DNA from: Minisyncoccota bacterium
GTDB lineage: Bacteria; Patescibacteriota; Minisyncoccia; Phycocordibacterales; JAGLPS01
DNA length: 64,000 nt
Reading direction: 5' to 3'
NCBI GenBank assembly: GCA_023137185.1
Contig: JAGLPS010000006.1
Coordinates: forward strand, 683 to 64,682
Positions 17,694 through 29,238 of this stretch are shown here, one piece after another (position 1 is the stretch's first letter; each line of letters begins with the position of its first letter). The notes beneath the pieces are model-generated. The model had not been told where the DNA came from. It searched no databases and saw nothing but the letters and a program-made list of their open reading frames with translations. A program made the position numbers and the translations under genes.

Positions 17694-19136
17694 CTACAAT
17701 TTTAATTGATTATTTGATGAATTACGATTGTTTTTTTCAATCTCCTCCTCAACTCTCCTTTTCGCTTCTTCTAAAAGCTCTTTGCTTTCTTTTCTCAATT
17801 TATGGCTTTCCTGTATTTTTTCTGCAATCTGTTTTTGAATTTTTGGGTTGATAAGAGGAATTTTAAATTTTTCAAAATCTGATGGTTTTAGATGGGCGAT
17901 TATTGCTCCGCCTGATAATTTTTCAACTTGCGTTTTAGAAATAATGGAATTGAAAATCAGAGACAGGCATTCTTTTTCAAAAGTTTGATATTTGTCTTTT
18001 AGGCTCAATCTTAAAAACGCTCCGCTCAAAATTAGATCAAATTCTTCTTTGACGACATAACTTAAACCGATTGTTCCATCTTTGGTAAATAAAATATCGT
18101 CCCGTTTAGGCTGATAATCATTTTTTAATTCCTGATAAAGCCCTTTTGAAATTTTCTTGCCTGTGTCTTTAACTCCGTTTATTGAAAAATCCGAAACTCT
18201 CCCAAATGACATTCCGTCCTGCTGATATGTTTCGCTCCCAACCTCAACGCCTTTTTTCCAATTCACTATATTTTTAACAAAATTCCAGCCGTTTTTATAA
18301 TTTTCAATCTTTTTAATTATCTCATCATATTTCGGCTGAAAATATTCCGCGTCAAATCTCCCCGCCTCGTCTGTTTCTTTTTTTGTAGTTTGAAATGATA
18401 AAATATGCTCTAGCTTGTAATCCCCTCCTTTGCCAAGGCTTCGGCGGGCAGGCAACAAATCAACCTCTTTCAAAAGCGTTTCTTCGGCTTGTTTGTAAAG
18501 TTGTTTTGATTGGGTTTGTTTTTCGTAAGCGAACTTTACGATTTTTTCTATTTGGAGTTGGAAAGATTGAGGAAGGATTGGGATTTTTAAATCAGTAAAA
18601 TTAAAAACGTTTAATTTGGGTTGTGCGTTACCGCTTATTCTTCTTAATATTTGATTTTGACCATACTTTGAATTTAAAAAAGTTAAAATAAAATATTTTA
18701 TTTCTTCATTGTAATTCTCTAGTTTTATACCGATATTATTTTCAGAGACATTTGCTCTTTTCATTTCATTATCTATTCTTGCAATCAAGCCAATTGTATT
18801 TCCAACTTTTGAGACAACTAAATCGCCTTGTTTTAATTCAGAATTTTTAATCTTATTATTACTATCCTCAGAAATACAAACCATATTTTCTTTTTCTAAA
18901 AAAAATCTTTGTCTTATGTCTTGAACTCTTACAAAATAAACACCTTCATTAAGATATTCTTCACTTTTTAAAGTTGACCCAAAGGGACCTGATACAACCT
19001 CATTTTTTGATAAATAAAAATGTTTTAAATTGTCCAATTTCTCTTCAATCTCCAAATATTCCAGTTTAAAAAACTCCGCGTCAAACCTGCGCGCTTCTTG
19101 AACATCTGATTTTTTGATAATTGAGATTTGTGGCAT
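17694..19136 (-). CDS. hsdS: Type I restriction-modification specificity subunit
   Basis: 480 aa; two target-recognition domains separated by conserved coiled-coil repeats; N-terminus MPQISIIKKSDVQEARRFDAEFF. Confidence 0.85.
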   Translation of the reverse strand: MPQISIIKKSDVQEARRFDAEFFKLEYLEIEEKLDNLKHFYLSKNEVVSGPFGSTLKSEEYLNEGVYFVRVQDIRQRFFLEKENMVCISEDSNNKIKNSELKQGDLVVSKVGNTIGLIARIDNEMKRANVSENNIGIKLENYNEEIKYFILTFLNSKYGQNQILRRISGNAQPKLNVFNFTDLKIPILPQSFQLQIEKIVKFAYEKQTQSKQLYKQAEETLLKEVDLLPARRSLGKGGDYKLEHILSFQTTKKETDEAGRFDAEYFQPKYDEIIKKIENYKNGWNFVKNIVNWKKGVEVGSETYQQDGMSFGRVSDFSINGVKDTGKKISKGLYQELKNDYQPKRDDILFTKDGTIGLSYVVKEEFDLILSGAFLRLSLKDKYQTFEKECLSLIFNSIISKTQVEKLSGGAIIAHLKPSDFEKFKIPLINPKIQKQIAEKIQESHKLRKESKELLEEAKRRVEEEIEKNNRNSSNNQLKL

Positions 19137-19142
19137 ATTATT

Positions 19143-20948
19143 TTAACTTTCCAATTTATCTTTTATGAAATTAAAAATTTCCTTAAAATTTTTCTTTGTT
19201 GTGTTTAACAAATTAAAACTTTCGCCCTTAATGAAAAGTTCTTGAATGGCTGTATTAAATTTACTTTTTTCATATTCCACGCTATCAGGAAAAGATAATT
19301 TTTGAATCCTCAATCTCTCCGCAGAAGTATGAAATAGTTTTTCAGTTTGAAAATTGCTAAAATTTTCTTTTATTTCTTTCAGGGTAAATATGTGCTTTTT
19401 TAATTCTTCACTTACATTATTTAAATAATTTTTTTTCGCTCTTTTTCCCGGAATGTCATCATCAAAAATTGCAATAAATTTTTTGTTATTTGCTAAATAT
19501 TCGCGAAAAATATTCTCGTGCTTATCAACTCCTGCCCCAGGATAAAAGTTAAAATCATAATCATCATTAAAAAATTGCTCTTTTACCCATTTAAACGTGT
19601 AGTAATCAAATTTACCTTCAGTGAAAACAATGTTTTTAGTCTGCTCAAAAGGATTTTTAATATATTCTAAACAATCTAAAATTGGCTGAAAGTGTGTTTC
19701 CTCGTTTTCATTGTTTGCAACAAAATTCCTATATAGTTCTGCGTCAATATTCTGGCTGTAGTTTTCCATATCAATCACTCCGCTACTGTCTTCTTTTCTG
19801 CCTTTGTCTTTCACAACAAATGAAGTAAGTAAAAATTTTGGATTTAATAAATAGTGGCTATGTGTTGAATAAATTATTTTTGATCTGTCAATTAACTTTT
19901 CAAAAAGTTTTAGCAATTTTTGCTGGGATCCTTGATGTAAATTACTTGCTGGTTCATCAAATAAAAATAAATATTCTCCTTTTTCAGTTTGTCTTGCCTT
20001 TCTAAATTCAGTAAAAAGCAAAAAGCCAAAATACCATCTAAAACCCAAACTCATTTCATTGATGTAAAAACTGCTTGCCCCCTCTTTAATTTTAAATTGC
20101 AAAAAATAACCATTGGTATCTTTATTATGTTCAATTTCAATATTCTTTCTTGTTGAATTAGAAAAAATTTGTTGCCAAGACTGCACTATGACAGAATTTA
20201 ATTTTTGACTCATTTCATTTAATATTTGTTTTGCGGATTCTTCATCATCCTCGCTTGTACTTTTTAATCTATCTAGAATATGTTTATTTAAATTATAAGA
20301 CTCATCAATGCTACTTAAAATGTCTTGTAAAATTTTTCTATATTCTTTTTGAGTGTCCGTTTTTGTTAATTCCGAATTTTCAATATTTTCAAGATAAATT
20401 TTGTCAGGAAAATCAAATAGAAAATTTTCAAAATACAAAATTTTTGGAATTAACTTTTCTTTAATTTCTGTTGTTAACGCATCCCAATGTTCGTTGTATC
20501 TATCGTACATATCAACAAAATTTTTTGCTTGTTTTGTCTTTACTTTTAAATCAATGTTCCACAAAACACTAAAACCTCTATCAATAAATTTAGAATCTTT
20601 GAATTTATATTTTTTAGTAATTGATATTTCATCTATTTCTTTTTCTAATTCTAATTTTTTCTTTAGTAAAAAAGATTCAATAAATTTTTTGTCATCATTA
20701 CCCAATTTTAAAGTTGCTTTAATTGTTACTACATCGTTAAAATTTGCTTTTTTATTCTTATGTATCATCTCGTGCTCGCTGCCCTCAATTTTATTTTGAA
20801 ATAAATCTATTGCTTCTAAAATTGTAGTTTTTCCGCTCTCGTTTAACCCAACTAATGGAAAAATTTCTCCATTCGGTTGTTTTGTTAAATCTAAAACAAG
20901 ACTATTTATCCCTTTAAAATTTTTTATTTTGAATTTAATGTATTTCAT
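19143..20948 (-). CDS. OLD-family nuclease: N-terminal ABC ATPase fused to C-terminal Toprim domain (Gabija GajA / class-1 OLD-like)
   Basis: 601 aa; Walker A GLNESGKTT, Walker B LFLFDEPASNLH, H-loop YSTHSH; Toprim glutamate (VFTEGKFD) and DxD (IFDDD); stop is 6 nt before the hsdS ATG. Confidence 0.75.
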   Translation of the reverse strand: MKYIKFKIKNFKGINSLVLDLTKQPNGEIFPLVGLNESGKTTILEAIDLFQNKIEGSEHEMIHKNKKANFNDVVTIKATLKLGNDDKKFIESFLLKKKLELEKEIDEISITKKYKFKDSKFIDRGFSVLWNIDLKVKTKQAKNFVDMYDRYNEHWDALTTEIKEKLIPKILYFENFLFDFPDKIYLENIENSELTKTDTQKEYRKILQDILSSIDESYNLNKHILDRLKSTSEDDEESAKQILNEMSQKLNSVIVQSWQQIFSNSTRKNIEIEHNKDTNGYFLQFKIKEGASSFYINEMSLGFRWYFGFLLFTEFRKARQTEKGEYLFLFDEPASNLHQGSQQKLLKLFEKLIDRSKIIYSTHSHYLLNPKFLLTSFVVKDKGRKEDSSGVIDMENYSQNIDAELYRNFVANNENEETHFQPILDCLEYIKNPFEQTKNIVFTEGKFDYYTFKWVKEQFFNDDYDFNFYPGAGVDKHENIFREYLANNKKFIAIFDDDIPGKRAKKNYLNNVSEELKKHIFTLKEIKENFSNFQTEKLFHTSAERLRIQKLSFPDSVEYEKSKFNTAIQELFIKGESFNLLNTTKKNFKEIFNFIKDKLES

Positions 20949-20970
20949 GAGTGATTAAATTAAAATTAAA

Positions 20971-21096
20971 TTATCTCCAAAACCCCAACCCATTCTCCCT
21001 CCCCCACTTCTCAAAAGCAAAAGCGATCTCGTCTAAGTCGTCAAACTTGCGCGCTTCTTGAACATCTGATTTTTTTATAATTGAAATTTGAGGCAT
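20971..21096 (-). other. Junction repeat 2 with chimeric 41-aa mini-ORF MPQISIIKKSDVQEARKFDDLDEIAFAFEKWGRENGLGFWR (hsdS N-terminus fused to hsdM C-terminus)
   Basis: Start 2 nt after the stop of the upstream cassette gene. Its stop lies 22 nt before the OLD ATG, reproducing the native hsdM-stop/hsdS-start spacing. Confidence 0.6.
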
Positions 21097-21098
21097 AG

Positions 21099-22025
21099 TT
21101 AATTTTTAATTTTAGAAACCTCTGATGGCTCAATTTCTTTCCCTTCTGGTTTAGGGTTAAATTCTATACTTTTATAATTTTTACATTGAAATAATTGATA
21201 TTTAATAAGTTCATCAAACTTCAAATTTCCTTTTTTTAGATCTGATGGATGAATTACAATAATTAATTTTTCGCAAATCGCTTTATATTTAGATGTATCT
21301 ATAAAAGTATCTATAATTTGCTTAATAATAATTTCTCTGGTTAGCTCAGGATTTCTTCCATGTTGTGCATTTATTAGAGGAATCACAATAGATTCATCTT
21401 TACTTGAATCAGAGGAAAGAAATTCCCATAATCCATTTAAGCTAAGCATAAAATCATCTATAGAGGATTTGACTCTATCATTTTTTTGTTTCTTTGAATT
21501 TACAAGTAAATAAAACCTTTTTATTTTATTTTTAAACAATTTCTTTTTTTGCTTTTCTATTTCAATAACCTTTCCTATCTCAAAAGGAGTATCCCTAATA
21601 TTTATTTTTTCCTTTATTTTATCGTCTAGTTGTTTTGAATCATTATTAAAATAATCTTTAATTAATTTATTCTGAATACTTTTTGCTTCTTTAACATTTC
21701 CATTCAGGGATGTATCAAAATAATTATTAAACGGAACTATTTGTGAACCTTTAACATTAAAAGCATCTCCAATTTTCAACTCAATGCAAGAGTCTCTATC
21801 TCTAATTTTTATAGAATGAGATGATTTCGGATAATTTTTAAAAATTGCATATAAAAAACTTGAACCTAAAATGCACCAAAATATTAAAGGAAGATTTAAT
21901 CTTTCACTTACAGAAGAGAAAAAATATGAAATAATTTCTGTGATTAGCCACAAAAAACCAAGACAAGAAAGAAAGTCTTTAATAGCAAAACGCCAATTTT
22001 GTATCCATCTTTTTATTAAGATCAT
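21099..22025 (-). CDS. Two-TM membrane protein with ~230-aa cytoplasmic C-terminal domain of unknown family (candidate effector/sensor of the TIR cassette)
   Basis: 308 aa; two N-terminal hydrophobic helices; start overlaps the TIR gene stop (ATGA). Confidence 0.45.
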   Translation of the reverse strand: MILIKRWIQNWRFAIKDFLSCLGFLWLITEIISYFFSSVSERLNLPLIFWCILGSSFLYAIFKNYPKSSHSIKIRDRDSCIELKIGDAFNVKGSQIVPFNNYFDTSLNGNVKEAKSIQNKLIKDYFNNDSKQLDDKIKEKINIRDTPFEIGKVIEIEKQKKKLFKNKIKRFYLLVNSKKQKNDRVKSSIDDFMLSLNGLWEFLSSDSSKDESIVIPLINAQHGRNPELTREIIIKQIIDTFIDTSKYKAICEKLIIVIHPSDLKKGNLKFDELIKYQLFQCKNYKSIEFNPKPEGKEIEPSEVSKIKN

Positions 22026-22528
22026 AATCCTAGTTGCTGGTAAACTGTATCTTTGTAATGATAAGCTCCTGTTTTATCATTATTTCTAAAAGAAGAATCT
22101 GAATCAAACCAATCATCAATAGCATGTTCAATTATCTTTTGTTTAAAATTCACATGAACAGCTAATTCGTCTTTTAGTATTGTTGGACATAAATCAGAAT
22201 CCATACTTGTTTTCCCATTTAAATTTACTACAATAATCGGAATATTTCTTTTTATTGCCTGCTCAATTTCCCAACGAACAAATTTATAAAGATGTTTCGT
22301 ATTATCTCCCACAAGAAGAATAAAAACTTTCGTGTTTCTTAATCGTTCAGCAAGTTTTGCCTTAATAGTTTCTTCTGTAGAATCTGACATAAGATTATTT
22401 AAATCATGAGCATCATAAAAATTAAATGAAGTATTATCACTTTTTTTCCAAGCTTGCATTAAACGATAATAATGAATGTCATTATCTGCATCAAAAGCAA
22501 CATATGTTTTGTTTGTATAAATTGTCAT
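22022..22528 (-). CDS. TIR-like domain protein (DUF1863/ThsB-like)
   Basis: 168 aa; YVAFDADNDIHYY N-terminal strand and KVFILLVGDNTKH..WEIEQAIKRNIPIIVV pattern of bacterial TIR-like (ThsB) domains. Confidence 0.6.
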   Translation of the reverse strand: MTIYTNKTYVAFDADNDIHYYRLMQAWKKSDNTSFNFYDAHDLNNLMSDSTEETIKAKLAERLRNTKVFILLVGDNTKHLYKFVRWEIEQAIKRNIPIIVVNLNGKTSMDSDLCPTILKDELAVHVNFKQKIIEHAIDDWFDSDSSFRNNDKTGAYHYKDTVYQQLGL

Positions 22529-22567
22529 AAAAATATTTTAGATTAATAAATTAATTTTTCCAAAAAT

Positions 22568-22879
22568 TCAACTCTTCCTTTTCACAAGAGTTTTTCCTGT
22601 TTTACCTCTTCGTAATTGGACTTTCGGCATATTCTTTTTTGCGTGATCCAAAGCCTCATCATTAAAACCTTTTGTTGAAACAATTACATCTGCATGGTTT
22701 TGTTGATACGCTTTTTGTAATTGAAATTTCGTAAGAGGCTTTTTGTAATCTTTCACTTCAACTTTATCTCCTCCCTTTTTAATATCTGGATTATTTGGTC
22801 CAGCTTTTCTTGTGCCATCAATTCCTTTGGCGACTTTTTTCTCTGCTCGTTTTCCTTTTTTTGCATTGTTATCTGTCAT
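22568..22879 (-). CDS. Small basic protein with possible minimal PD-(D/E)xK motif
   Basis: 103 aa; NNPDIKKGGDKVEVKDYKKP could be PD...ExK; weak. Confidence 0.3.
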   Translation of the reverse strand: MTDNNAKKGKRAEKKVAKGIDGTRKAGPNNPDIKKGGDKVEVKDYKKPLTKFQLQKAYQQNHADVIVSTKGFNDEALDHAKKNMPKVQLRRGKTGKTLVKRKS

Positions 22880-22907
22880 ATTATTTTAAATTAAAAAATT
22901 AATAAAT

Positions 22908-23039
22908 TTATTTCCAAAAACTCAACCCATTCTCCTTCCCCCACTTCTCAAAAGCAAAAGCGATCTCGTCTAAGTCGTCAAACTTGCGTGCTTCATTGAA
23001 TATCTGTTTTTTTATAATTGAAATTTGCGGCATAGCCAT
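22908..23039 (-). other. Junction repeat 1 with chimeric 43-aa mini-ORF MAMPQISIIKKQIFNEARKFDDLDEIAFAFEKWGKENGLSFWK
   Basis: Nucleotide-level copy of the hsdM 3' end joined to the hsdS 5' start; start 1 nt after the stop of the 379-aa gene. Confidence 0.6.
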
Positions 23040-23040
23040 T

Positions 23041-24180
23041 TTAATTTATATGATAATGCTTAATTGCATTATTTCGAATAACTAAAAGATAACTTTCTGT
23101 TTTCCAGCATTGTTGATTATCACATATCTCACTAACATATTCTTTTTCATTAAAAATAACGAAGTTTATCTCTTTTAAAAATGTATTTCCACAAACAAAA
23201 TTCTTAATAAAATCTTTATTTTTTATATTTCCAATTAAATATAAAGTTTCCAAATTTGATTTTGTAAATTCCTCTATATATCTTTTGTAAGGAGCACTAC
23301 CTTGCTCATAAATTTTGTCTGTTTTCCCGATTATAATCATTCCAAATTTACAATAATTACCTAAAAATCTATTATCGGTTTCTTCATTGATTTTTCGCCT
23401 TGAATAATTATTTAAAAATTTTATTAAATTTGTAACCTCTGTAATAATTAAATCGTCTTTTCTATTATTAAAAACTTTTTCTCCTAAAAAAATCATCTCT
23501 TGAATAAAGACAGGAAAAAATAATCCTTTTTTATCAATACTTTGATATTTAACAAATAAATCATCAACTATTTTTTCTTCTATTTTTGGATGTAAAAAAT
23601 CTTCAATAAATTCTTTTACGACATCTTCTTTCTCCTCTTCAAATATTTTCTTGCCAACAAATAAATCTATAGATTCTTTTTGTTTTTCACTTATATATCT
23701 TTTTGCTTTAATTAATAAATTTTCTGCTATAAAAATCATAGTTGCATTAACAAAGTTTTTATTTTCATTATCATTTTTCCTTATTCTAACAATCATTTTT
23801 CCATTCTCTAAAAAAGATTTTGGTATTTCACTATCACTTACCCATTCCACTTTTAGTTTTATTGGCATAAAACCTTTAATTTCTCTTTTTAAAAAACCGT
23901 TAACAAAAGAATTAGTTCTACTTTGAAAATCATGCTGGATATATTTTTTCCTGATTACGGGAACTGTTTTAAAAATTTTTGATAATGCTTTATAAAATAA
24001 TGCAATAAATTTTTCAAATCTATCGGGATAAAATACAGCACAAACAAAAACTATGAAAAATAAAAACCAACCGCCGTATGCGAACATACAGTCAAAAAAA
24101 ACTTTCGCGCTTTCCCCGTCATTAAAATTTATATTAATTGGCATATTTATTTTAAATATACTAATAGTTTTTTTATACAC
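23041..24180 (-). CDS. Hypothetical protein with one N-terminal TM helix (cassette 1)
   Basis: 379 aa, Lys/Glu/Phe-rich, no recognisable motif. Confidence 0.4.
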   Translation of the reverse strand: MYKKTISIFKINMPININFNDGESAKVFFDCMFAYGGWFLFFIVFVCAVFYPDRFEKFIALFYKALSKIFKTVPVIRKKYIQHDFQSRTNSFVNGFLKREIKGFMPIKLKVEWVSDSEIPKSFLENGKMIVRIRKNDNENKNFVNATMIFIAENLLIKAKRYISEKQKESIDLFVGKKIFEEEKEDVVKEFIEDFLHPKIEEKIVDDLFVKYQSIDKKGLFFPVFIQEMIFLGEKVFNNRKDDLIITEVTNLIKFLNNYSRRKINEETDNRFLGNYCKFGMIIIGKTDKIYEQGSAPYKRYIEEFTKSNLETLYLIGNIKNKDFIKNFVCGNTFLKEINFVIFNEKEYVSEICDNQQCWKTESYLLVIRNNAIKHYHIN

Positions 24181-24380
24181 TCAGGCGAATCGCACACAAA
24201 TTTTATATCTTCTGATTTTTTAAATAAAGAATGCAAGTTTTCAACATTAATTATATTTTTGCAAAATTCACATTTTTTTCTTCCTTGTACAAAATCATCT
24301 AAAATGCCAAGCCTTTTCAGCATTCCTTTTAAATCATCATCGTATACTAGATTGATTTTCTTTTTTTCTTTTTTGAACAT
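24147..24380 (-). CDS. Small protein with C-terminal CxxC...C..C zinc-ribbon-like motif
   Basis: 77 aa; CEFCKN...CDSPEC. Confidence 0.3.
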   Translation of the reverse strand: MFKKEKKKINLVYDDDLKGMLKRLGILDDFVQGRKKCEFCKNIINVENLHSLFKKSEDIKFVCDSPECIKKLLVYLK

Positions 24381-24404
24381 ATTAATTTATTTATTTTCAA
24401 AAAA

Positions 24405-25070
24405 TTATTTTTCATCTCTCTTTTCAATAGCTTCTTTGGAATTTTCTGGTAAATCGTTATAAAAACTGTCAATTTCTTTTTGTTCTGTAATCATTTTTTC
24501 TGCTATAAAATTTAGCAATTCAAAAAGTTTCAAGACTTTTTCTGTCTCTTCTTCAAGATTTATTTCTCCTGGGTGAACCGCACCATTTCCTGTTATTCTA
24601 AGTATATCCAAAGATTTTTGAATTTGAGGATTCAACCCTTTTTTAACTAACTCCTTTATGTCATCATTTATATTTTTTCCTTTTTCACCAAGCTGTTTGC
24701 AAAGTTTTTGTAACGCTAATCTTAAAAGTGCAGCAGATGCTCGCGGAGAATCACTAAAAATATTTGCCGCTTCTAAATAATCCTTTTTAATGTCACCAGA
24801 CAAATCATCGTTAGGCAGATCAACAATCATTTTTTTAGGATATATAATTTCATTTTCAAGCCAAATTATTTTTTCGCTACAATGTTTGCATCGTGACATT
24901 TTCCATTCACTTGATAAATTCTCGTTAAACTTGCTAACACCGTAAAAATCATCTCCATAAACATGATGACCTGTAATATGTCCCCATTGTTGCTCTGCAA
25001 ATACTCCACAGTGCGGACAATGGAATTCGCCGTAATTCAATATTGGTGGATAATGTTTTTCTTTTGTCAT
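24405..25070 (-). CDS. Zinc-finger + DUF4145 domain protein
   Basis: 221 aa; CPHCG...CKHCSEK N-terminal Zn finger; C-terminal LRLALQKL...ILRITGNGAVH pattern of DUF4145; starts 21 nt after the hsdM stop. Confidence 0.55.
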   Translation of the reverse strand: MTKEKHYPPILNYGEFHCPHCGVFAEQQWGHITGHHVYGDDFYGVSKFNENLSSEWKMSRCKHCSEKIIWLENEIIYPKKMIVDLPNDDLSGDIKKDYLEAANIFSDSPRASAALLRLALQKLCKQLGEKGKNINDDIKELVKKGLNPQIQKSLDILRITGNGAVHPGEINLEEETEKVLKLFELLNFIAEKMITEQKEIDSFYNDLPENSKEAIEKRDEK

Positions 25071-25091
25071 ATTTTTATTCTTAAATTTATA

Positions 25092-27119
25092 TTATCTCCA
25101 AAAATTCAACCCATTCTCCTTCCCCCATTTCTCAAAAGCAAAAGCAATATCGTCTAAATCGTGTTTTTGTTTTAGGTGGTTATGCTCATCAAGTTTTCTT
25201 TCTCCATTTTTATCAACTTCGTAAATCTCATCCCCCGAATTATCTTTGCCTGAATTTTCACTCACCGCCATAAATATTTTATAATCATCAACCTTTGGAT
25301 TGATTTTTTCATCCCATTTCTGCACAAACAAGACAGAAGTTTTTGTTCCCGTATGCGGTTTGAAAGTATTGCCGTCAAGCCCGACCACCGCTAAAAGGCG
25401 CGCCCGCTCCATTATAAAATCCCTGATCCTTTCATCGCTCGTATTATTAAACCTTCCCTGCGGCAAGACAATCGCCATTCTTCCGCCCGGTTTTAGAAAA
25501 TCCAGATTCCTTTCAATAAACAAAATGTCTCTTGAAATATTATCAATCTGCTTGTCTTTTTTATAAGCCACTTCATAGCAAGCCGTCATCCTTTTATCTT
25601 TAATATCTCCGGCAAAAGGCGGATTCGCCATTACCAAATCAAAATTAAATTCTTTTGGATTTTTTCTGTCTTTCGCCAAATCCAGCAATCTGTAAAAACC
25701 CTCTAAATAAGTTCTGCTCCATTCCCGGTCTTTCAGTTTTTCTTCCCACCTTGTGTAATCAAGCGAATTCAAATGCAAGACATTTGTCCTGCCGTCGCCC
25801 GCAATCATATTTAAAGTCCGCGCGACACGAACCGATTTTTCGTCAAAATCAATCCCGAAAACTTTTAAGACATATTCCTTTTGCTCTTTGGTCGGTTTCT
25901 GATTTGAAAAATTGCTGAATTGCGCCTTGCCGTTGCCTTTTAATTTTTCCCAAACATTAAAAAGCGTATGTACTGTAAATCCGCAAGACCCGCAAGCCGT
26001 ATCTATCATATACTCGCTTGGCTTTGGATTAAGCATATAAACGCACATATCAATTACATTTCTTGGCGTAAAATACTGTCCTTTTTCTCCTTTGGCGGAT
26101 TTGTTGACCAGATATTCAAACGCTTCGTCAATCACCTGCAGATTGGAATTGAAGAGTTTTACATTCTGCAAAAATCCGACGCAGATTTGCAGATGGTTTT
26201 CATCCGTAATGCGAAGCGGTTCGCCTTTTTCAAAAATTCCCGGCCATTTTTCTTTGGCTTTCTGAAAAAGATTATTGATGACTTCTTTCGTATGATGCGC
26301 ATCGCCGCGACTTCTGAATTCCAGTTGCGTTAATCCTTTTATTTTAACTTTAGCCAAAATTTCTTTATCAGATAAATCAGGATTTTCTTCTCTTAGTTCT
26401 TTAAATTTCCACTCTATTTTTTGCCTATCTTCCGAGCTTTCCATTTCATCATAAAGCTTGATAAAAATCAGTTTAAAAACTTCTTCAAAAACATCCACGC
26501 CGGCATTTGCCAGAACTTCGTCCTCCATTTCCTGAATTAAAGTTTTCAAAGATTTTCTTTCTTCCTGAAGCTTGTCTTTTTGCATCAGTTCCAAATAAGT
26601 AAAAATTTCGTTTTTTACATCGTCTATTGTTTCATTCGCTTTTGGAATATCAGAAAGCGGTTCAAAATAATTAGGATCCAATCGCTCGTAATAATTTATT
26701 TCTGTTCCGTTCGTCCAAACCGCCAAAGGTGCGCCTGTCGCGTTTGTGTAGCTTTTCAACTGGTCTTTCCCATCTTTCGCTTTGTGCTTTTTAATTTCCA
26801 AAACACAATAAACGCTCGTTTTATCTTTTTTATTTAAAATAATAATATCCGCTAGCTTCTTTTCCCTGCCAAAAGAAATAGAAAATTCAACCCTTATCAA
26901 ATCAACGGGATAATTATATTCATTAAGAAGTTTATCAAGCGTTAATTGCCTCACAATCTCCTCCGGCTTTGCTTGAATGTCTTTTTCTCTTTTCAAACAT
27001 TTAATAAAATGCTTTCCTTTTTTCTCAAAAATGCTTTTCTCAACTCTGTCTATGCTTTCCGCGGAAAAAGTCGTCAAATCATATTTCCCGCCTGATTTTA
27101 TAAGTTGCGATAGATTCAT
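25092..27119 (-). CDS. hsdM: Type I restriction-modification DNA methyltransferase subunit
   Basis: 675 aa; N6-adenine MTase motifs DTACGSCGF (motif I) and NPPF (motif IV); HsdM N-terminal domain. Confidence 0.9.
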   Translation of the reverse strand: MNLSQLIKSGGKYDLTTFSAESIDRVEKSIFEKKGKHFIKCLKREKDIQAKPEEIVRQLTLDKLLNEYNYPVDLIRVEFSISFGREKKLADIIILNKKDKTSVYCVLEIKKHKAKDGKDQLKSYTNATGAPLAVWTNGTEINYYERLDPNYFEPLSDIPKANETIDDVKNEIFTYLELMQKDKLQEERKSLKTLIQEMEDEVLANAGVDVFEEVFKLIFIKLYDEMESSEDRQKIEWKFKELREENPDLSDKEILAKVKIKGLTQLEFRSRGDAHHTKEVINNLFQKAKEKWPGIFEKGEPLRITDENHLQICVGFLQNVKLFNSNLQVIDEAFEYLVNKSAKGEKGQYFTPRNVIDMCVYMLNPKPSEYMIDTACGSCGFTVHTLFNVWEKLKGNGKAQFSNFSNQKPTKEQKEYVLKVFGIDFDEKSVRVARTLNMIAGDGRTNVLHLNSLDYTRWEEKLKDREWSRTYLEGFYRLLDLAKDRKNPKEFNFDLVMANPPFAGDIKDKRMTACYEVAYKKDKQIDNISRDILFIERNLDFLKPGGRMAIVLPQGRFNNTSDERIRDFIMERARLLAVVGLDGNTFKPHTGTKTSVLFVQKWDEKINPKVDDYKIFMAVSENSGKDNSGDEIYEVDKNGERKLDEHNHLKQKHDLDDIAFAFEKWGKENGLNFWR

Positions 27120-27200
27120 AATTTTTTGTTAAAAGTTTCGTAATAAATTTATTTTGATTGATACTTTTGTTTCTTTGAAATTTGCTATATTTTTATTTAA

Positions 27201-27710
27201 TTAAATCATCCCTCCAGAGGCGGGCAGGCAGGCGAAATACCGAGAGCGTCCGCGATTTTTTAACTGTGTCAATGGTGGGGTTTGGCGTTGCGCGTCGCCG
27301 ACCGCTTTCATAAACTCATCGTAGTTTTTGGCAATGCGTTTGCGATTTATTGTATACCCTTGAACAAGATATTCTTTTAATATCTTGTTCGCCCACTTCC
27401 TAAATTCAACAGCTTGAGCGGAATTTGTTCTATATCCTACGGATAAAATAACATCAAGAGAATAAAAAGAAACCGGCTTATCTGAATTTGCAATGTGCAT
27501 TTTTTGCACATTGCTTTTTTCACTTATTTCTCCAGATTTAATGATCGTTCTAATATGCTTTGTGATCACAGATCGTTCTACACTAAAAACTTCAGCAATC
27601 TGTGCCTGTGTCGCCCATATATTTTCATGCTCAAAATCGCCTCGAAGTTCAATCGCTCCGTTTTTTGCTTGATAAATAATTATATTGTTTGCTGTTTTTT
27701 TCTTTTTCAT
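27201..27710 (-). CDS. RhuM-family (virulence protein RhuM / DNA-binding) protein
   Basis: 169 aa; IYQAKNGAIELRGDFEHENIWATQAQIAEVFSVERSVITKHIR matches the RhuM family commonly found beside hsdM. Confidence 0.7.
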   Translation of the reverse strand: MKKKKTANNIIIYQAKNGAIELRGDFEHENIWATQAQIAEVFSVERSVITKHIRTIIKSGEISEKSNVQKMHIANSDKPVSFYSLDVILSVGYRTNSAQAVEFRKWANKILKEYLVQGYTINRKRIAKNYDEFMKAVGDAQRQTPPLTQLKNRGRSRYFACLPASGGMI

Positions 27711-27889
27711 AATTTATATTTCGCTTTAAACATCCCTCCAAAGGCGGGCAGGCAGGCGAAACGCCGAGCGCGTCCGCAATTTTTTAACTGTGTCAATAGT
27801 GGGGTTTGGCGTTGCGCGTCGCCGACTACTTCGGCGTCTTTGCGCATAATGTTTTGGATATTTTTGATGATGTTTTGTATTTCGGACAT
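27707..27889 (-). pseudogene. Duplicated 3' fragment of the RhuM gene (~100 nt) fused to unrelated N-terminal sequence
   Basis: 27722-27820 is ~90% identical to 27208-27305; encodes ...VGDAQRQTPLLTQLKNCGRARRFACLPAFGGM. Confidence 0.5.
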
Positions 27890-27890
27890 A

Positions 27891-28985
27891 TTATTTCCCT
27901 CTTTGAGCTTCTGTTATCGCGCGATCAACCATAAATCGCACGGCTTCATTCATATGAAGATTTTCAATCTTTATAGATGGATGTTTTTTCTGAAAAACCC
28001 GATATATTTCATCCGCAAATGCCTGACCAACCATAGGAACATTTTCATAATCCAACGCAACAACCTTGAACTTTTCAAGACCGGAAAGAACACGCCGCGC
28101 TTGCGAGCGCGATATATGCACTCCCCCCGCAATATATAGACGTACATACACTTCAGTCTTATCAAAACCGTACTCACCACCAACACCCGTGTCAGTATAT
28201 TTACGAAAAATATCATTGAGATGATGCCTGTCGTCTATGTTGATACGAAATGTAACTTTTGTCCCCTGTTTTTGACCTTTAACTTTTTTTACAAATATAT
28301 CGTCTATTTTATTGTTTGCAATAAATTGGTACCCGTAACTATCGAGAATAAATTCATCACCAACTTTTGACGTAAAGAAAATACCTTCACCGGAATGAAG
28401 TTTTGGCTCAGTTGTCATCTTGCCCTTGAGAAGGTCTTGTATTGCTTCCATTTCCGATTTAAGATGTCGTTTTTTCATAATATTACGATATACTCCTACA
28501 CCAAAATCATCGACGGCAAACGACAACTCATCGTCATTTAATGAAACCGAAACATTAATTTTCTTTGAACCGGAGTGTTCAATTGCATTGTTCAGCATCT
28601 CAGAAAAAGCGTATGTAAAAATACTTTTTATATTTTCCGAAAATCGACTAAATGGAAGAAATCTGTGTTCTATGTCATCAAGAACGATATGTTCTTCAAG
28701 ACCTTTGTTAACAAGTTGTCTGGTATATATATTTGGAGTAACATCCGGATGCTCTTGAATGTATTCCACCGTCGCATACCTCGCCGAACGCGTTGAACCA
28801 AGTTTTATAAGCTTTTTTTCTTCAACAAGATTAGATATGAGCTTGTTCGCATATTGCCGAGAAACTCCAAAAGAACCCGCGATATTACGGCTTTTAATTA
28901 TCCCTTTTTCCTGCGCTATTTTAAGAATGTGTTCCGTGTTTATCATATGTAAACTGATTGTAAACAATCGGTTTACAATTGTCAA
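27891..28985 (-). CDS. wHTH + GHKL-type ATPase (HATPase_c) + STAS-like (DUF4325) protein
   Basis: 364 aa; N-terminal HTH, N-box EMLNNAIEHSG, C-terminal STAS-like region. Confidence 0.5.
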   Translation of the reverse strand: MTIVNRLFTISLHMINTEHILKIAQEKGIIKSRNIAGSFGVSRQYANKLISNLVEEKKLIKLGSTRSARYATVEYIQEHPDVTPNIYTRQLVNKGLEEHIVLDDIEHRFLPFSRFSENIKSIFTYAFSEMLNNAIEHSGSKKINVSVSLNDDELSFAVDDFGVGVYRNIMKKRHLKSEMEAIQDLLKGKMTTEPKLHSGEGIFFTSKVGDEFILDSYGYQFIANNKIDDIFVKKVKGQKQGTKVTFRINIDDRHHLNDIFRKYTDTGVGGEYGFDKTEVYVRLYIAGGVHISRSQARRVLSGLEKFKVVALDYENVPMVGQAFADEIYRVFQKKHPSIKIENLHMNEAVRFMVDRAITEAQRGK

Positions 28986-29005: not shown

Positions 29006-29194
29006 CTATGCAGTATACAACTGCCTCTCAATCTCCTCCGGCTTCGCCTGAATATCGCTCTTTCTTTTCAGGCATTTAACAAAAAACTTTTTGTTTTTCT
29101 CAAAAATCTTTTTTTCAACCCTGTCTATACTTTCCTCGGAAAAAGTCGTCAAATCATATTTCCCGCCTGATTTTATAAGTTGTGATAAATTCAT
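29006..29194 (-). pseudogene. Duplicated 5' fragment of hsdM (first 57 codons, ~235-nt repeat including the upstream region)
   Basis: MNLSQLIKSGGKYDLTTFSEESIDRVEKKIFEKNKKFFVKCLKRKSDIQAKPEEIERQL vs the hsdM N-terminus; 29000-29233 approx equals 26925-27158. Confidence 0.7.
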
Positions 29195-29238
29195 AATTTT
29201 TTGTTAAAAGTTTCGTAATAAATTTATATTGCCTATAA

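Follow-up and report, generated by a model that had tools for sequence, protein, structure and literature searches.

A Type II Thoeris Pair and a Separate Minimal PD-(D/E)xK Nuclease Gene in One Cassette between hsdM and hsdS of a CPR Bacterium

Type II Thoeris has already been described (bioRxiv 10.1101/2024.01.03.573942; PMC11204291), and its reference systems come from Bacillus amyloliquefaciens Y2 (PDB 8r66) and Escherichia coli CFT073 (EcThsA/EcThsB2; PDB 8v6q, 8v6r, and 8v6t). Work on these systems has reported a histidine-ADP-ribose (His-ADPR) signal that is bound by the Macro domain of the effector ThsA (10.1101/2024.01.03.573942) and has characterized both the class of TIR enzymes to which ThsB belongs and the nucleotide-induced oligomerization of the Macro domains (PMC11204291). 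More recently, thsA together with an EcThsB2-like thsB2 was found to be sufficient for function, with the transmembrane (TM) helices of the effector being required (10.64898/2026.01.22.701046). Two observations complicate the simplest account. Purified EcThsB2, the closest solved ThsB to the one considered here, had no NADase activity in vitro (PMC11204291), and the inferred production of His-ADPR by the EcThsB2/BaThsB class leans on BaThsB. In one study, moreover, a type II system caused growth arrest without NAD depletion or markers of cell death.

Here we consider three linked genes in a window (the whole stretch of DNA analyzed, 64,000 nucleotides) of a CPR genome. The original prediction took them for a single undescribed TIR-based defense cassette. 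We think it very probable, instead, that the locus is a type II Thoeris pair beside which the third gene, p103, stands as a separate module.

Layout of the locus

An ORF check recovers three reading frames on the minus strand, of 103, 168, and 308 aa, at the coordinates originally given, and the cassette that they form is bounded on both sides by duplicated junction repeats. The features, in the direction of reading, are as follows.

22908..23033, minus strand: boundary of the cassette on its upstream side, a hybrid mini-ORF of 41 aa (from direct repeats, sequence reading, and tblastn)
22568..22879, minus strand: p103, a basic stand-alone protein of 103 aa having a Mrr-like PD-(D/E)xK nuclease fold in minimal form (E13, D32, E41-x-K43)
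22022..22528, minus strand: thsB, a 168-aa TIR protein of EcThsB2 type ("subfamily 9"; from Pfam, PADLOC, PDB, and residue mapping)
21099..22025, minus strand: thsA, a 308-aa effector in which two N-terminal TM helices precede a ThsA-type Macro domain at the C terminus (from Pfam, PADLOC, PDB, AF2, and Foldseek)
21837..21974, minus strand: TM-helix region of ThsA (Kyte-Doolittle and AF2), comprising helix 1 (21909-21974, aa 18-39) and helix 2 (21837-21899, aa 43-63), both from Kyte-Doolittle
21249..21785, minus strand: Macro domain of ThsA, aa 81-259 (full-length Pfam match, residue mapping, and conservation)
20971..21096, minus strand: downstream cassette boundary, a second HsdS-N::HsdM-C hybrid mini-ORF (from direct repeats, sequence reading, and tblastn)

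As the original prediction held, thsB and thsA overlap by 4 nt (ATGA at 22022-22025), and domain search and tblastn bear out the placement of the cassette between hsdM and hsdS, inside the hsdM-hsdS operon. Three cassettes are stacked there, of which p103 plus thsBA is one.

The composition of the boundaries was read by searching the window with HsdM and HsdS in tblastn. The upstream mini-ORF joins the HsdS N terminus (aa 1-19) to the HsdM C terminus (approximately the last 22-29 aa) and lies within a direct repeat of about 134 nt (22901-23034; repeat families D2 and D3). The repeat at 20964-21097 has two parts, which are 93 and 75% identical to that copy, and the mini-ORF within it begins 2 nt past the thsA stop codon. 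The cassettes were apparently stacked through recombination at these duplicated hsdS-5'::hsdM-3' junctions. A promoter scan was uninformative, with 51 promoter-like sites versus 45 ± 7 expected.

The ThsB–ThsA pair

The TIR domain proposed for the 168-aa protein is real and of the ThsB kind. Pfam ThsB_TIR (PF08937, DUF1863) matches at 7e-22, above the gathering score, PADLOC ThsB (PDLC00429) matches over the full length at 7.7e-75, and the EcThsB2 sequence of PDB 8v6t aligns with aa 4-168 at 5.6e-33 and 42.9% identity. In that alignment Y9, E87, Y158, and Y163 correspond to EcThsB2 Y8, E89, Y159, and Y164, which makes Y9 the active-site tyrosine, E87 the catalytic glutamate, and Y158 and Y163 the tyrosines of the C-terminal tail. 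All four are unchanged in each of five orthologs.

The 308-aa protein was predicted to have two N-terminal TM helices, and this holds: the hydrophobic segments have 19-residue Kyte-Doolittle peaks of 1.79 and 1.74, and the AF2 model (pLDDT 85.3) places helices at residues 11-35 and 45-63. It was further predicted to carry a novel cytosolic domain of about 230 aa lacking SIR2, Macro, and SLOG motifs. The first and last of these absences stand, as neither Pfam nor PADLOC gives a SIR2 or SLOG match, but a Macro domain is present. Pfam ThsA_Macro (PF20016) matches aa 81-259 at 3.8e-29 over the entire profile (1-183 of 183), and PADLOC ThsA (PDLC00414) matches aa 14-271 at 2.1e-40, with all of the PADLOC ThsA matches being to Macro-type models. 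By sequence, the protein matches PDB entries 8r66, 9uuz, 8v6q, and 8v6s (1e-9 to 7e-7), improving to 6.5e-15 (8v6q) when a profile is used. Structure prediction agrees: the best eight Foldseek matches of the AF2 model are the Macro domains of EcThsA, PcThsA, and BaThsA, with target TM-scores of 0.65-0.73, and generic macro domains rank lower. PF20016 is present in all 61 ThsA homologs.

The ligand pocket is recognizable but altered. We mapped D87, D104, S116, Q118, S177, R224, and H259 to EcThsA and BaThsA and judged their conservation over 26 homologs, taking as reference Ba D100, N133, S194, R240, and Y277 and Ec D83, N114, S175, S217-G218-T220, H259, and K262. Four reference positions are kept: the aspartate that contacts adenine N6 (D87; Ec D83/Ba D100), S177 (Ec S175/Ba S194), R224 (Ba R240, the arginine binding the carboxylate of histidine), invariant among the homologs here, and the stacking residue H259 (Ec H259/Ba Y277). 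D104 corresponds to Ec D100. Differences occur at Ec N114/Ba N133, which is Gln118 here; at Ec K262, which is Asp262; and in the phosphate loop, which reads NAQHG versus GSGIT. Overall, the Macro domain shares only about 20% identity with ThsA domains of solved structure. Judged from its residues, the pocket is compatible with an ADPR-type ligand, of which they do not single out His-ADPR; because ligand-contact positions differ, the exact ligand could differ as well, and it is conceivable, though rather unlikely, that this divergent CPR pocket reads a signal distinct from His-ADPR. A conserved extension of about 35-45 aa (from approximately aa 265-270 to 308) follows the Pfam domain.

The two genes co-occur strictly in the loci compared. 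We examined six other ThsA loci, which represent five gene neighborhoods (L010 and L015 being one contig); a search of GTDB genomes with a 12-sequence ThsA alignment found only three loci. In L010/L015, L012/L013, L014, and L016, thsB lies directly 5' of thsA, again overlapping it by 4 nt, and its product is 69-83% identical. The contig of L017 stops 64 nt upstream of thsA. All related loci whose sequence extends upstream keep the arrangement, in line with the co-occurrence test that the original prediction proposed.

That prediction also proposed a Thoeris-like logic, a TIR signal acting on an effector that sits in the membrane and carries a ligand-binding domain, and the domains found here fit it. 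By analogy with the characterized homologs, the signal chemistry, oligomerization, and defense phenotype are likely to be shared. ThsB would sense infection and convert NAD+ into a signal of His-ADPR type. The signal would bind the C-terminal Macro domain of ThsA, and ligand-bound Macro domains would then oligomerize, clustering the two N-terminal TM helices. Membrane integrity or growth would be compromised, and phage propagation would halt. Because growth arrest has been seen without death markers, the terminal effect could be either pore formation or arrest.

p103 and the alternative readings

The remaining protein was described as basic, with a possible PD...ExK motif, and on both counts the description was accurate. 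Its pI is 10.2, and E13, D32, E41, and K43 are invariant across its family down to 28% identity. The AF2 model (pLDDT 86) has the core alpha-beta-beta-beta-alpha-beta fold with an E...PD...ExK signature, and its best fold matches are PD-(D/E)xK nucleases (the AF1548, AspBHI, and LlaBIII domains). Pfam Mrr_cat (PF04471) scores 17.8 bits, below its gathering cut-off of 21, and matches only 5 of 24 relatives (best E 2.3e-4); a profile search of PDB sequences yielded no related solved structure. The family comprises 30 cluster representatives among 1.84 billion. Its saturated dS (1.1-2.4) and low dN/dS (0.07-0.17) point to old divergence under strong constraint and weaken the idea of a recently spreading selfish gene. 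The family profile found no relative in IMG/VR viral contigs, so a phage-borne or anti-defense origin is unsupported.

Does p103 belong to the Thoeris system? A three-gene variant, in which p103 would be a functional third component, an additional effector or a regulator working with ThsB and ThsA, has some appeal: the gene lies 39 nt upstream of thsB in the same direction, no terminator-like site was found between them on the minus strand, both modules sit in the same repeat-bounded cassette, and in three other loci (L004, L021, and L022) a p103 homolog follows another pair of TIR and membrane protein (ThsB_TIR plus 8xMP). Several lines of evidence oppose it. First, p103 is missing from all six other ThsA loci. 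Second, the p103 loci all lack ThsA and ThsB proteins of the subfamily found here; besides the TIR+8xMP pairs, the neighbors there are Shedu SduA_C genes, hsdM/hsdR genes, or, in L023, an HTH-Panacea gene. Third, DNA homology stops exactly at the border between p103 and thsB. Finally, the published type II system functions with thsA and thsB2 alone (10.64898/2026.01.22.701046). We therefore regard a three-gene system as very unlikely. DNA and protein comparison both divide what had been seen as one TIR defense system into two juxtaposed modules, and p103 is an independently distributed minimal PD-(D/E)xK nuclease gene that happens to share the cassette.

On its own, p103 may act, most plausibly, as an autonomous nuclease or toxin-like defense gene or as a restriction-modification accessory gene. 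Whether it always occupies a cassette edge was also considered, but in cassettes of two to three genes such a position carries no information. It is also conceivable, but rather unlikely, that it represents an undescribed stand-alone PD-(D/E)xK family of CPR defense cassettes, serving as an accessory or back-up nuclease for neighboring abortive-infection modules (Thoeris II, TIR+8xMP, and Shedu) or promoting cassette stacking and exchange at hsd junctions. A 379-aa protein encoded upstream was considered as its partner and set aside, no homolog of it occurring in any p103 locus. The same protein was rejected as a divergent Shedu; it travels with a DUF4145 gene and a 77-aa gene. Separately, we note a conserved trio of DUF4145, 77-aa, and 367-aa proteins.

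A second alternative is that the genes are a decaying or non-functional remnant, passive cargo of an AT-rich island. Their GC content of 25-28% (versus about 40% elsewhere) and the truncated hsd fragments that flank them could be read in this way, as could the fact that no hsdR was seen adjoining the hsdM-hsdS pair of the window. But neither thsB nor thsA is interrupted or shortened in comparison with its homologs, the catalytic and pocket residues, as counted for this alternative, are all kept in thsBA, and selection is purifying, with dN/dS of 0.1-0.27 and saturated dS over the pair (0.11-0.27 for thsA; 0.12 for thsB, from the sole comparison that allowed a dS estimate). Decay thus seems highly improbable. 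The idea of an undescribed TIR system, its effector bearing a novel domain for ligand binding, can practically be dismissed: NCBIfam has no model for ThsB or ThsA, neither it nor PHROGs matches p103, ThsB, or ThsA, the public (NCBI) annotation of ThsA is "hypothetical protein," and its pocket loop is unlike that of characterized ThsA, but Pfam, PADLOC, solved ThsA and ThsB sequences, fold, and literature all recognize the pair, PF20016 runs through its whole homolog set, and the thsB-thsA pair is an already described system.

Significance and comparison with known systems

For Thoeris biology the finding changes little; it adds a divergent type II pair from a single CPR genome to those described. 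It also provides a concrete case of Thoeris II as a cassette within a type I restriction-modification operon, and five of the six related loci are embedded in the same way. The by-products outweigh the main finding, namely the p103 family, the hsd junction scars, and the trio noted above. p103 is a rare, strongly conserved nuclease family of about 100 aa that recurs in CPR defense cassettes, and the hybrid junctions are clear sequence scars of cassette stacking within restriction-modification operons.

Against the type II references, the pair here agrees in gene order, thsB coming first and its stop overlapping the start of thsA; in a ThsB of about 168 aa (43% identical to EcThsB2) with the active-site tyrosine, the catalytic glutamate, and a tyrosine-rich C-terminal tail; and in a ThsA that joins two TM helices to a Macro domain, which keeps the adenine aspartate, structural aspartate, ribose serine, carboxylate arginine, and stacking aromatic. 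It differs in its CPR host (Candidatus Pacebacteria), in having one ThsB versus two in E. coli CFT073, in the low identity of its Macro domain, with the NAQHG loop and the Asn-to-Gln and Lys-to-Asp changes at two ribose contacts, in the conserved C-terminal extension of ThsA, and in being embedded between hsdM and hsdS. With type I Thoeris (ThsB TIR plus ThsA SIR2-SLOG) it shares a TIR sensor and signal synthase and a signal-activated effector. Its effector has no SIR2 or SLOG domain, however, and the signal would be expected not to be 3'cADPR, nor the killing to proceed by NAD depletion.

p103 resembles Mrr-like/AF1548-type PD-(D/E)xK domains (Mrr_cat, PF04471) in its core fold and E...PD...ExK signature; unlike them, it has only about 100 aa, has no DNA-recognition or regulatory domain, and falls below the Pfam gathering threshold. 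The setting, a defense cassette inserted between hsd genes, recalls PrrC, TgvAB (Vibrio cholerae VPI-2), and the "guilt-by-embedding" cassettes of Payne et al. We found no mention of stacking at hybrid junctions in those papers on defense genes embedded in restriction-modification operons that we consulted. In contrast to those cassettes, three are stacked here, split by duplicated hsdS-5'::hsdM-3' hybrid junctions.

The thsB-thsA pair as type II Thoeris

The cassette comprises three co-directional genes, lying exactly where the original prediction placed them.

22568-22879, minus strand: p103, a 103-aa ORF
22022-22528, minus strand: thsB, a 168-aa ORF for a TIR protein
21099-22025, minus strand: thsA, a 308-aa ORF for a protein with two transmembrane (TM) helices and a Macro domain

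A 4-nt overlap (ATGA) joins thsB to thsA. GC content is 28% in the cassette and 25% in thsA versus about 40% across the bulk of the window, and because strong AT-richness makes stop codons frequent, ORFs this long are not due to chance. A 100% identical 308-aa sequence in NCBI carries the title 'MAG: hypothetical protein KAR00_01250 [Candidatus Pacebacteria bacterium]', which places the window in a CPR/Patescibacteria genome.

These genes had been read as an undescribed TIR system whose effector carries a novel cytosolic domain lacking Macro features. The claim about the domain is wrong, and the wider reading as an undescribed system is not supported. ThsB and ThsA form a type II Thoeris system, a divergent CPR member, and a ThsB paired with a ThsA of two TM helices and a Macro domain is the architecture that defines this type (10.1101/2024.01.03.573942; PMC11204291). 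ThsA matches the whole Pfam ThsA_Macro profile at aa 81-259 (PF20016, 3.8e-29), PADLOC Macro-type ThsA models over nearly its full length (2.1e-40), and, among PDB sequences, Macro domains from solved structures of type II Thoeris (8r66, 9uuz, 8v6q, and 8v6s); a 26-sequence ThsA profile reaches a best E-value of 6.5e-15 against PDB. The AF2 model (pLDDT 85.3, pTM 0.80) shows a pair of long helices at the N-terminus ahead of an alpha/beta domain, and hydropathy puts the TM helices, which had been correctly recognized, at aa 18-39 and 43-63. In Foldseek searches of PDB with this model, the best eight matches are ThsA Macro structures (E 1e-10 to 6e-9, target TM-score 0.65-0.73), with the generic macro domains of macroH2A, PARP14, and OiMacroD ranked below them.

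The ligand pocket can be compared with those of the characterized E. coli (Ec) and B. amyloliquefaciens (Ba) ThsA proteins. D87 occupies the adenine-N6 Asp position (Ec D83/Ba D100), D104 the structural Ec D100 position, S177 that of Ec S175/Ba S194, and H259 the stacking-residue position (Ec H259/Ba Y277). The invariant R224 corresponds to Ba R240, which touches the histidine carboxylate of His-ADPR (10.1101/2024.01.03.573942). The pocket differs in having Gln118 in place of Ec N114/Ba N133, a phosphate loop of NAQHG versus GSGIT, and Asp262 in place of Ec K262. Judged by these residues, the pocket is of the ADPR-derivative type, and its exact ligand may differ from His-ADPR.

The ThsB-type TIR domain is borne out by profile searches (Pfam ThsB_TIR PF08937, 7e-22; PADLOC ThsB, 7.7e-75, near full length), and the closest comparison among PDB sequences is EcThsB2 (8v6t, 5.6e-33, aa 4-168, 42.9% identity). 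Y9 aligns with its active-site Tyr8, E87 with catalytic Glu89, and Y158 and Y163 with tail Tyr159 and Tyr164; all four are invariant across five orthologues, so the protein belongs to the ThsB class that contains the Tyr. Shi et al. saw this class, which by their account includes the His-ADPR-producing BaThsB, only with TM-Macro effectors (PMC11204291).

The two genes also travel together, contrary to the refuting case set out beforehand, in which their homologues would never co-occur. All 61 ThsA homologues found (26-65% identical, the exact database match aside) carry PF20016, and a ThsB of 166-168 aa, 69-83% identical, lies immediately upstream of thsA with the same 4-nt overlap at L010/L015 (Moranbacteria), L012/L013, L014, and L016; at L017, just 64 nt of contig precede thsA. 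Low dN/dS values (0.11-0.27 for thsA, with dS saturated; 0.12 for thsB, where a single comparison allowed a dS estimate) indicate purifying selection on both genes.

The putative p103 mini-nuclease and its neighbors

The p103 protein is strongly basic (pI 10.2), and its only Pfam match is a sub-threshold one to Mrr_cat. We found 22 close homologues (64-93% identical), and when 1.84 billion representatives were searched exhaustively with a profile, just 30 relatives emerged, nearly all stand-alone proteins of 78-164 aa. Across 24 relatives, down to 28% identity, only E13, D32, E41, and K43 are invariant. These residues constitute the PD-(D/E)xK catalytic signature, so the PD...ExK motif that had been guessed is supported.

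Could p103 belong to the Thoeris system? None of the other ThsBA loci carries it, and neither this ThsA nor this ThsB occurs at any p103 locus. Its homologues have unrelated neighbors: a Shedu SduA_C gene directly before them (L001, L003) or directly after them (L007, L026); a ThsB_TIR and 8xMP pair (L004, L021, L022), an hsdM-like gene (L024), or an HSDR_N-like ATPase (L018) before them; and a 157-aa protein plus hsdR (L019) or an HTH-SocA/Panacea antitoxin-like gene (L023) after them. Further, DNA homology in the p103 module spans the gene and about 35 nt upstream, and that of the thsBA module starts right after the p103 stop. These observations argue strongly against such a role; judged by gene content and DNA homology, p103 and thsBA are two juxtaposed modules. 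Recent selfish spread is also disfavored, as dN/dS of 0.07-0.17 with dS above 1 points to an old gene under strong constraint; the viral contigs searched contained no relatives. Most likely, p103 is a nuclease that acts autonomously, as a toxin-like protein or as an accessory of restriction-modification (R-M).

At L023 (1283-2098), a 56% identical relative lies 15 nt upstream of the HTH_3 plus SocA/Panacea gene, an arrangement hinting at a possible role of the mini-nuclease as the toxin of a pair. The TIR operon at L004 (5085-5991), L021 (1852-2767), and L022 (1947-2856), all CPR-type contigs, is a distinct one, in which a 137-aa ThsB_TIR protein gene overlaps that of a ~170-aa membrane protein (Pfam 8xMP, PF24838, 5.2e-43); p103 homologues lie directly 3' of it at 3/3 loci.

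Cassettes and repeats at the hsd junctions

Order of the array, read along the minus strand
1, 27119-25092, minus: hsdM
2, 23041-25070, minus: cassette 1, DUF4145/PD-T7-4 + 77 aa + 379/367 aa
3, 23033-22908, minus: 41-aa hybrid mini-ORF
4, 22879-21099, minus: cassette 2, p103 + thsB + thsA
5, 21096-20971, minus: second hybrid mini-ORF
6, 20948-19143, minus: cassette 3, OLD-like AAA_15/Toprim protein
7, 19136-17694, minus: hsdS

The cassettes are parted by duplicated junctions. Each hybrid mini-ORF fuses HsdS residues 1-19 to the C-terminal 22-29 residues of HsdM, and the two ~134-nt repeats (20964-21097; 22901-23034) are 93% identical in the hsdM-3' part and 75% in the hsdS-5' part; further junction-repeat sites lie at 19079-19137 and 25085-25178. 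Such hybrids suggest, from their sequence, the scar expected from recombinational stacking of hsdM-3'-X-hsdS-5' units, possibly by a circular intermediate recombining within hsdM-3' homology. Elsewhere, L012 is a simple hsdS-thsBA-hsdR allele. The junction pattern recurs in other CPR loci: at L010, thsBA lies between duplicates of the hsdS 3' end (91%, preceding it) and the hsdR 5' end (90%, following it) (repeat pairs 3246-3310/4408-4472 and 5935-5984/7713-7762), and at L007 a copy of the hsdM 3' end precedes p103 (4769-4825/5938-5994). These duplicated ends likewise suggest stacking at hsd junctions. Relatives of the thsBA pair lie inside type I R-M operons at 5/6 independent loci.

Cassette 1 is a conserved three-gene module (DUF4145, 24405-25070; 77 aa, 24147-24380; 379 aa, 23041-24180, probably 367 aa from 24144). 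Its DUF4145 protein matches PADLOC PD-T7-4 (1.8e-87); the 367-aa protein has one N-terminal TM helix, no match in Pfam, PADLOC, PHROGs, or NCBIfam, and >100 homologues, some in Bacteroidota. A Parcubacteria genome carries the trio as well, there without R-M genes around it (L027-L029). Cassette 3 (19143-20948) consists of one OLD-family-like protein of 601 aa, which has AAA_15/AAA_21 ATPase domains and matches Toprim weakly; its PADLOC matches are AriA (1.3e-23) and Old (2.6e-16). The 675-aa HsdM (25092-27119) bears an N-terminal nuclease-like HSDR_N_2 domain ahead of N6_Mtase and Eco57I methylase domains, and no hsdR adjoins the hsdM...hsdS pair among ORFs listed for 14-42 kb; thus, the system may depart from the canonical type I enzyme of three subunits.

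The hsdM 5' end is duplicated about 2 kb upstream (26944-27156 versus 29019-29231), where a 62-aa ORF (29006-29194) is 85% identical to HsdM aa 1-59. The copies enclose two genes, one of 364 aa (27891-28985) and one of 169 aa (27201-27710); the 169-aa gene has its 3' end duplicated at 91% (27201-27307 versus 27725-27831). Given these duplications, more junction-bounded cassettes seem to be present upstream of hsdM.

Proposed Thoeris mechanism and known systems

Defense genes embedded in type I R-M operons are already known from TgvAB (PMC11411939) and from Payne et al. (10.1101/2024.01.29.577857). What remains novel is the p103 family, the stacking of cassettes at junction repeats, and the possibility that the ligand varies within this ThsA clade.

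The sequence and structure prerequisites of the Thoeris mechanism are present here, and its steps are drawn from homologues. Upon infection, ThsB would convert NAD+ into His-ADPR, as demonstrated for the B. amyloliquefaciens system (10.1101/2024.01.03.573942). The ThsA Macro domain would bind this signal, and binding would drive Macro oligomerization and TM clustering, as demonstrated for EcThsA (PMC11204291). Either the membrane would be damaged or growth would stop; in one study, growth reportedly arrested with neither NAD depletion nor cell-death markers. In the known system, the TM helices are essential, and thsA with an EcThsB2-like thsB2 is enough for defense (10.64898/2026.01.22.701046).
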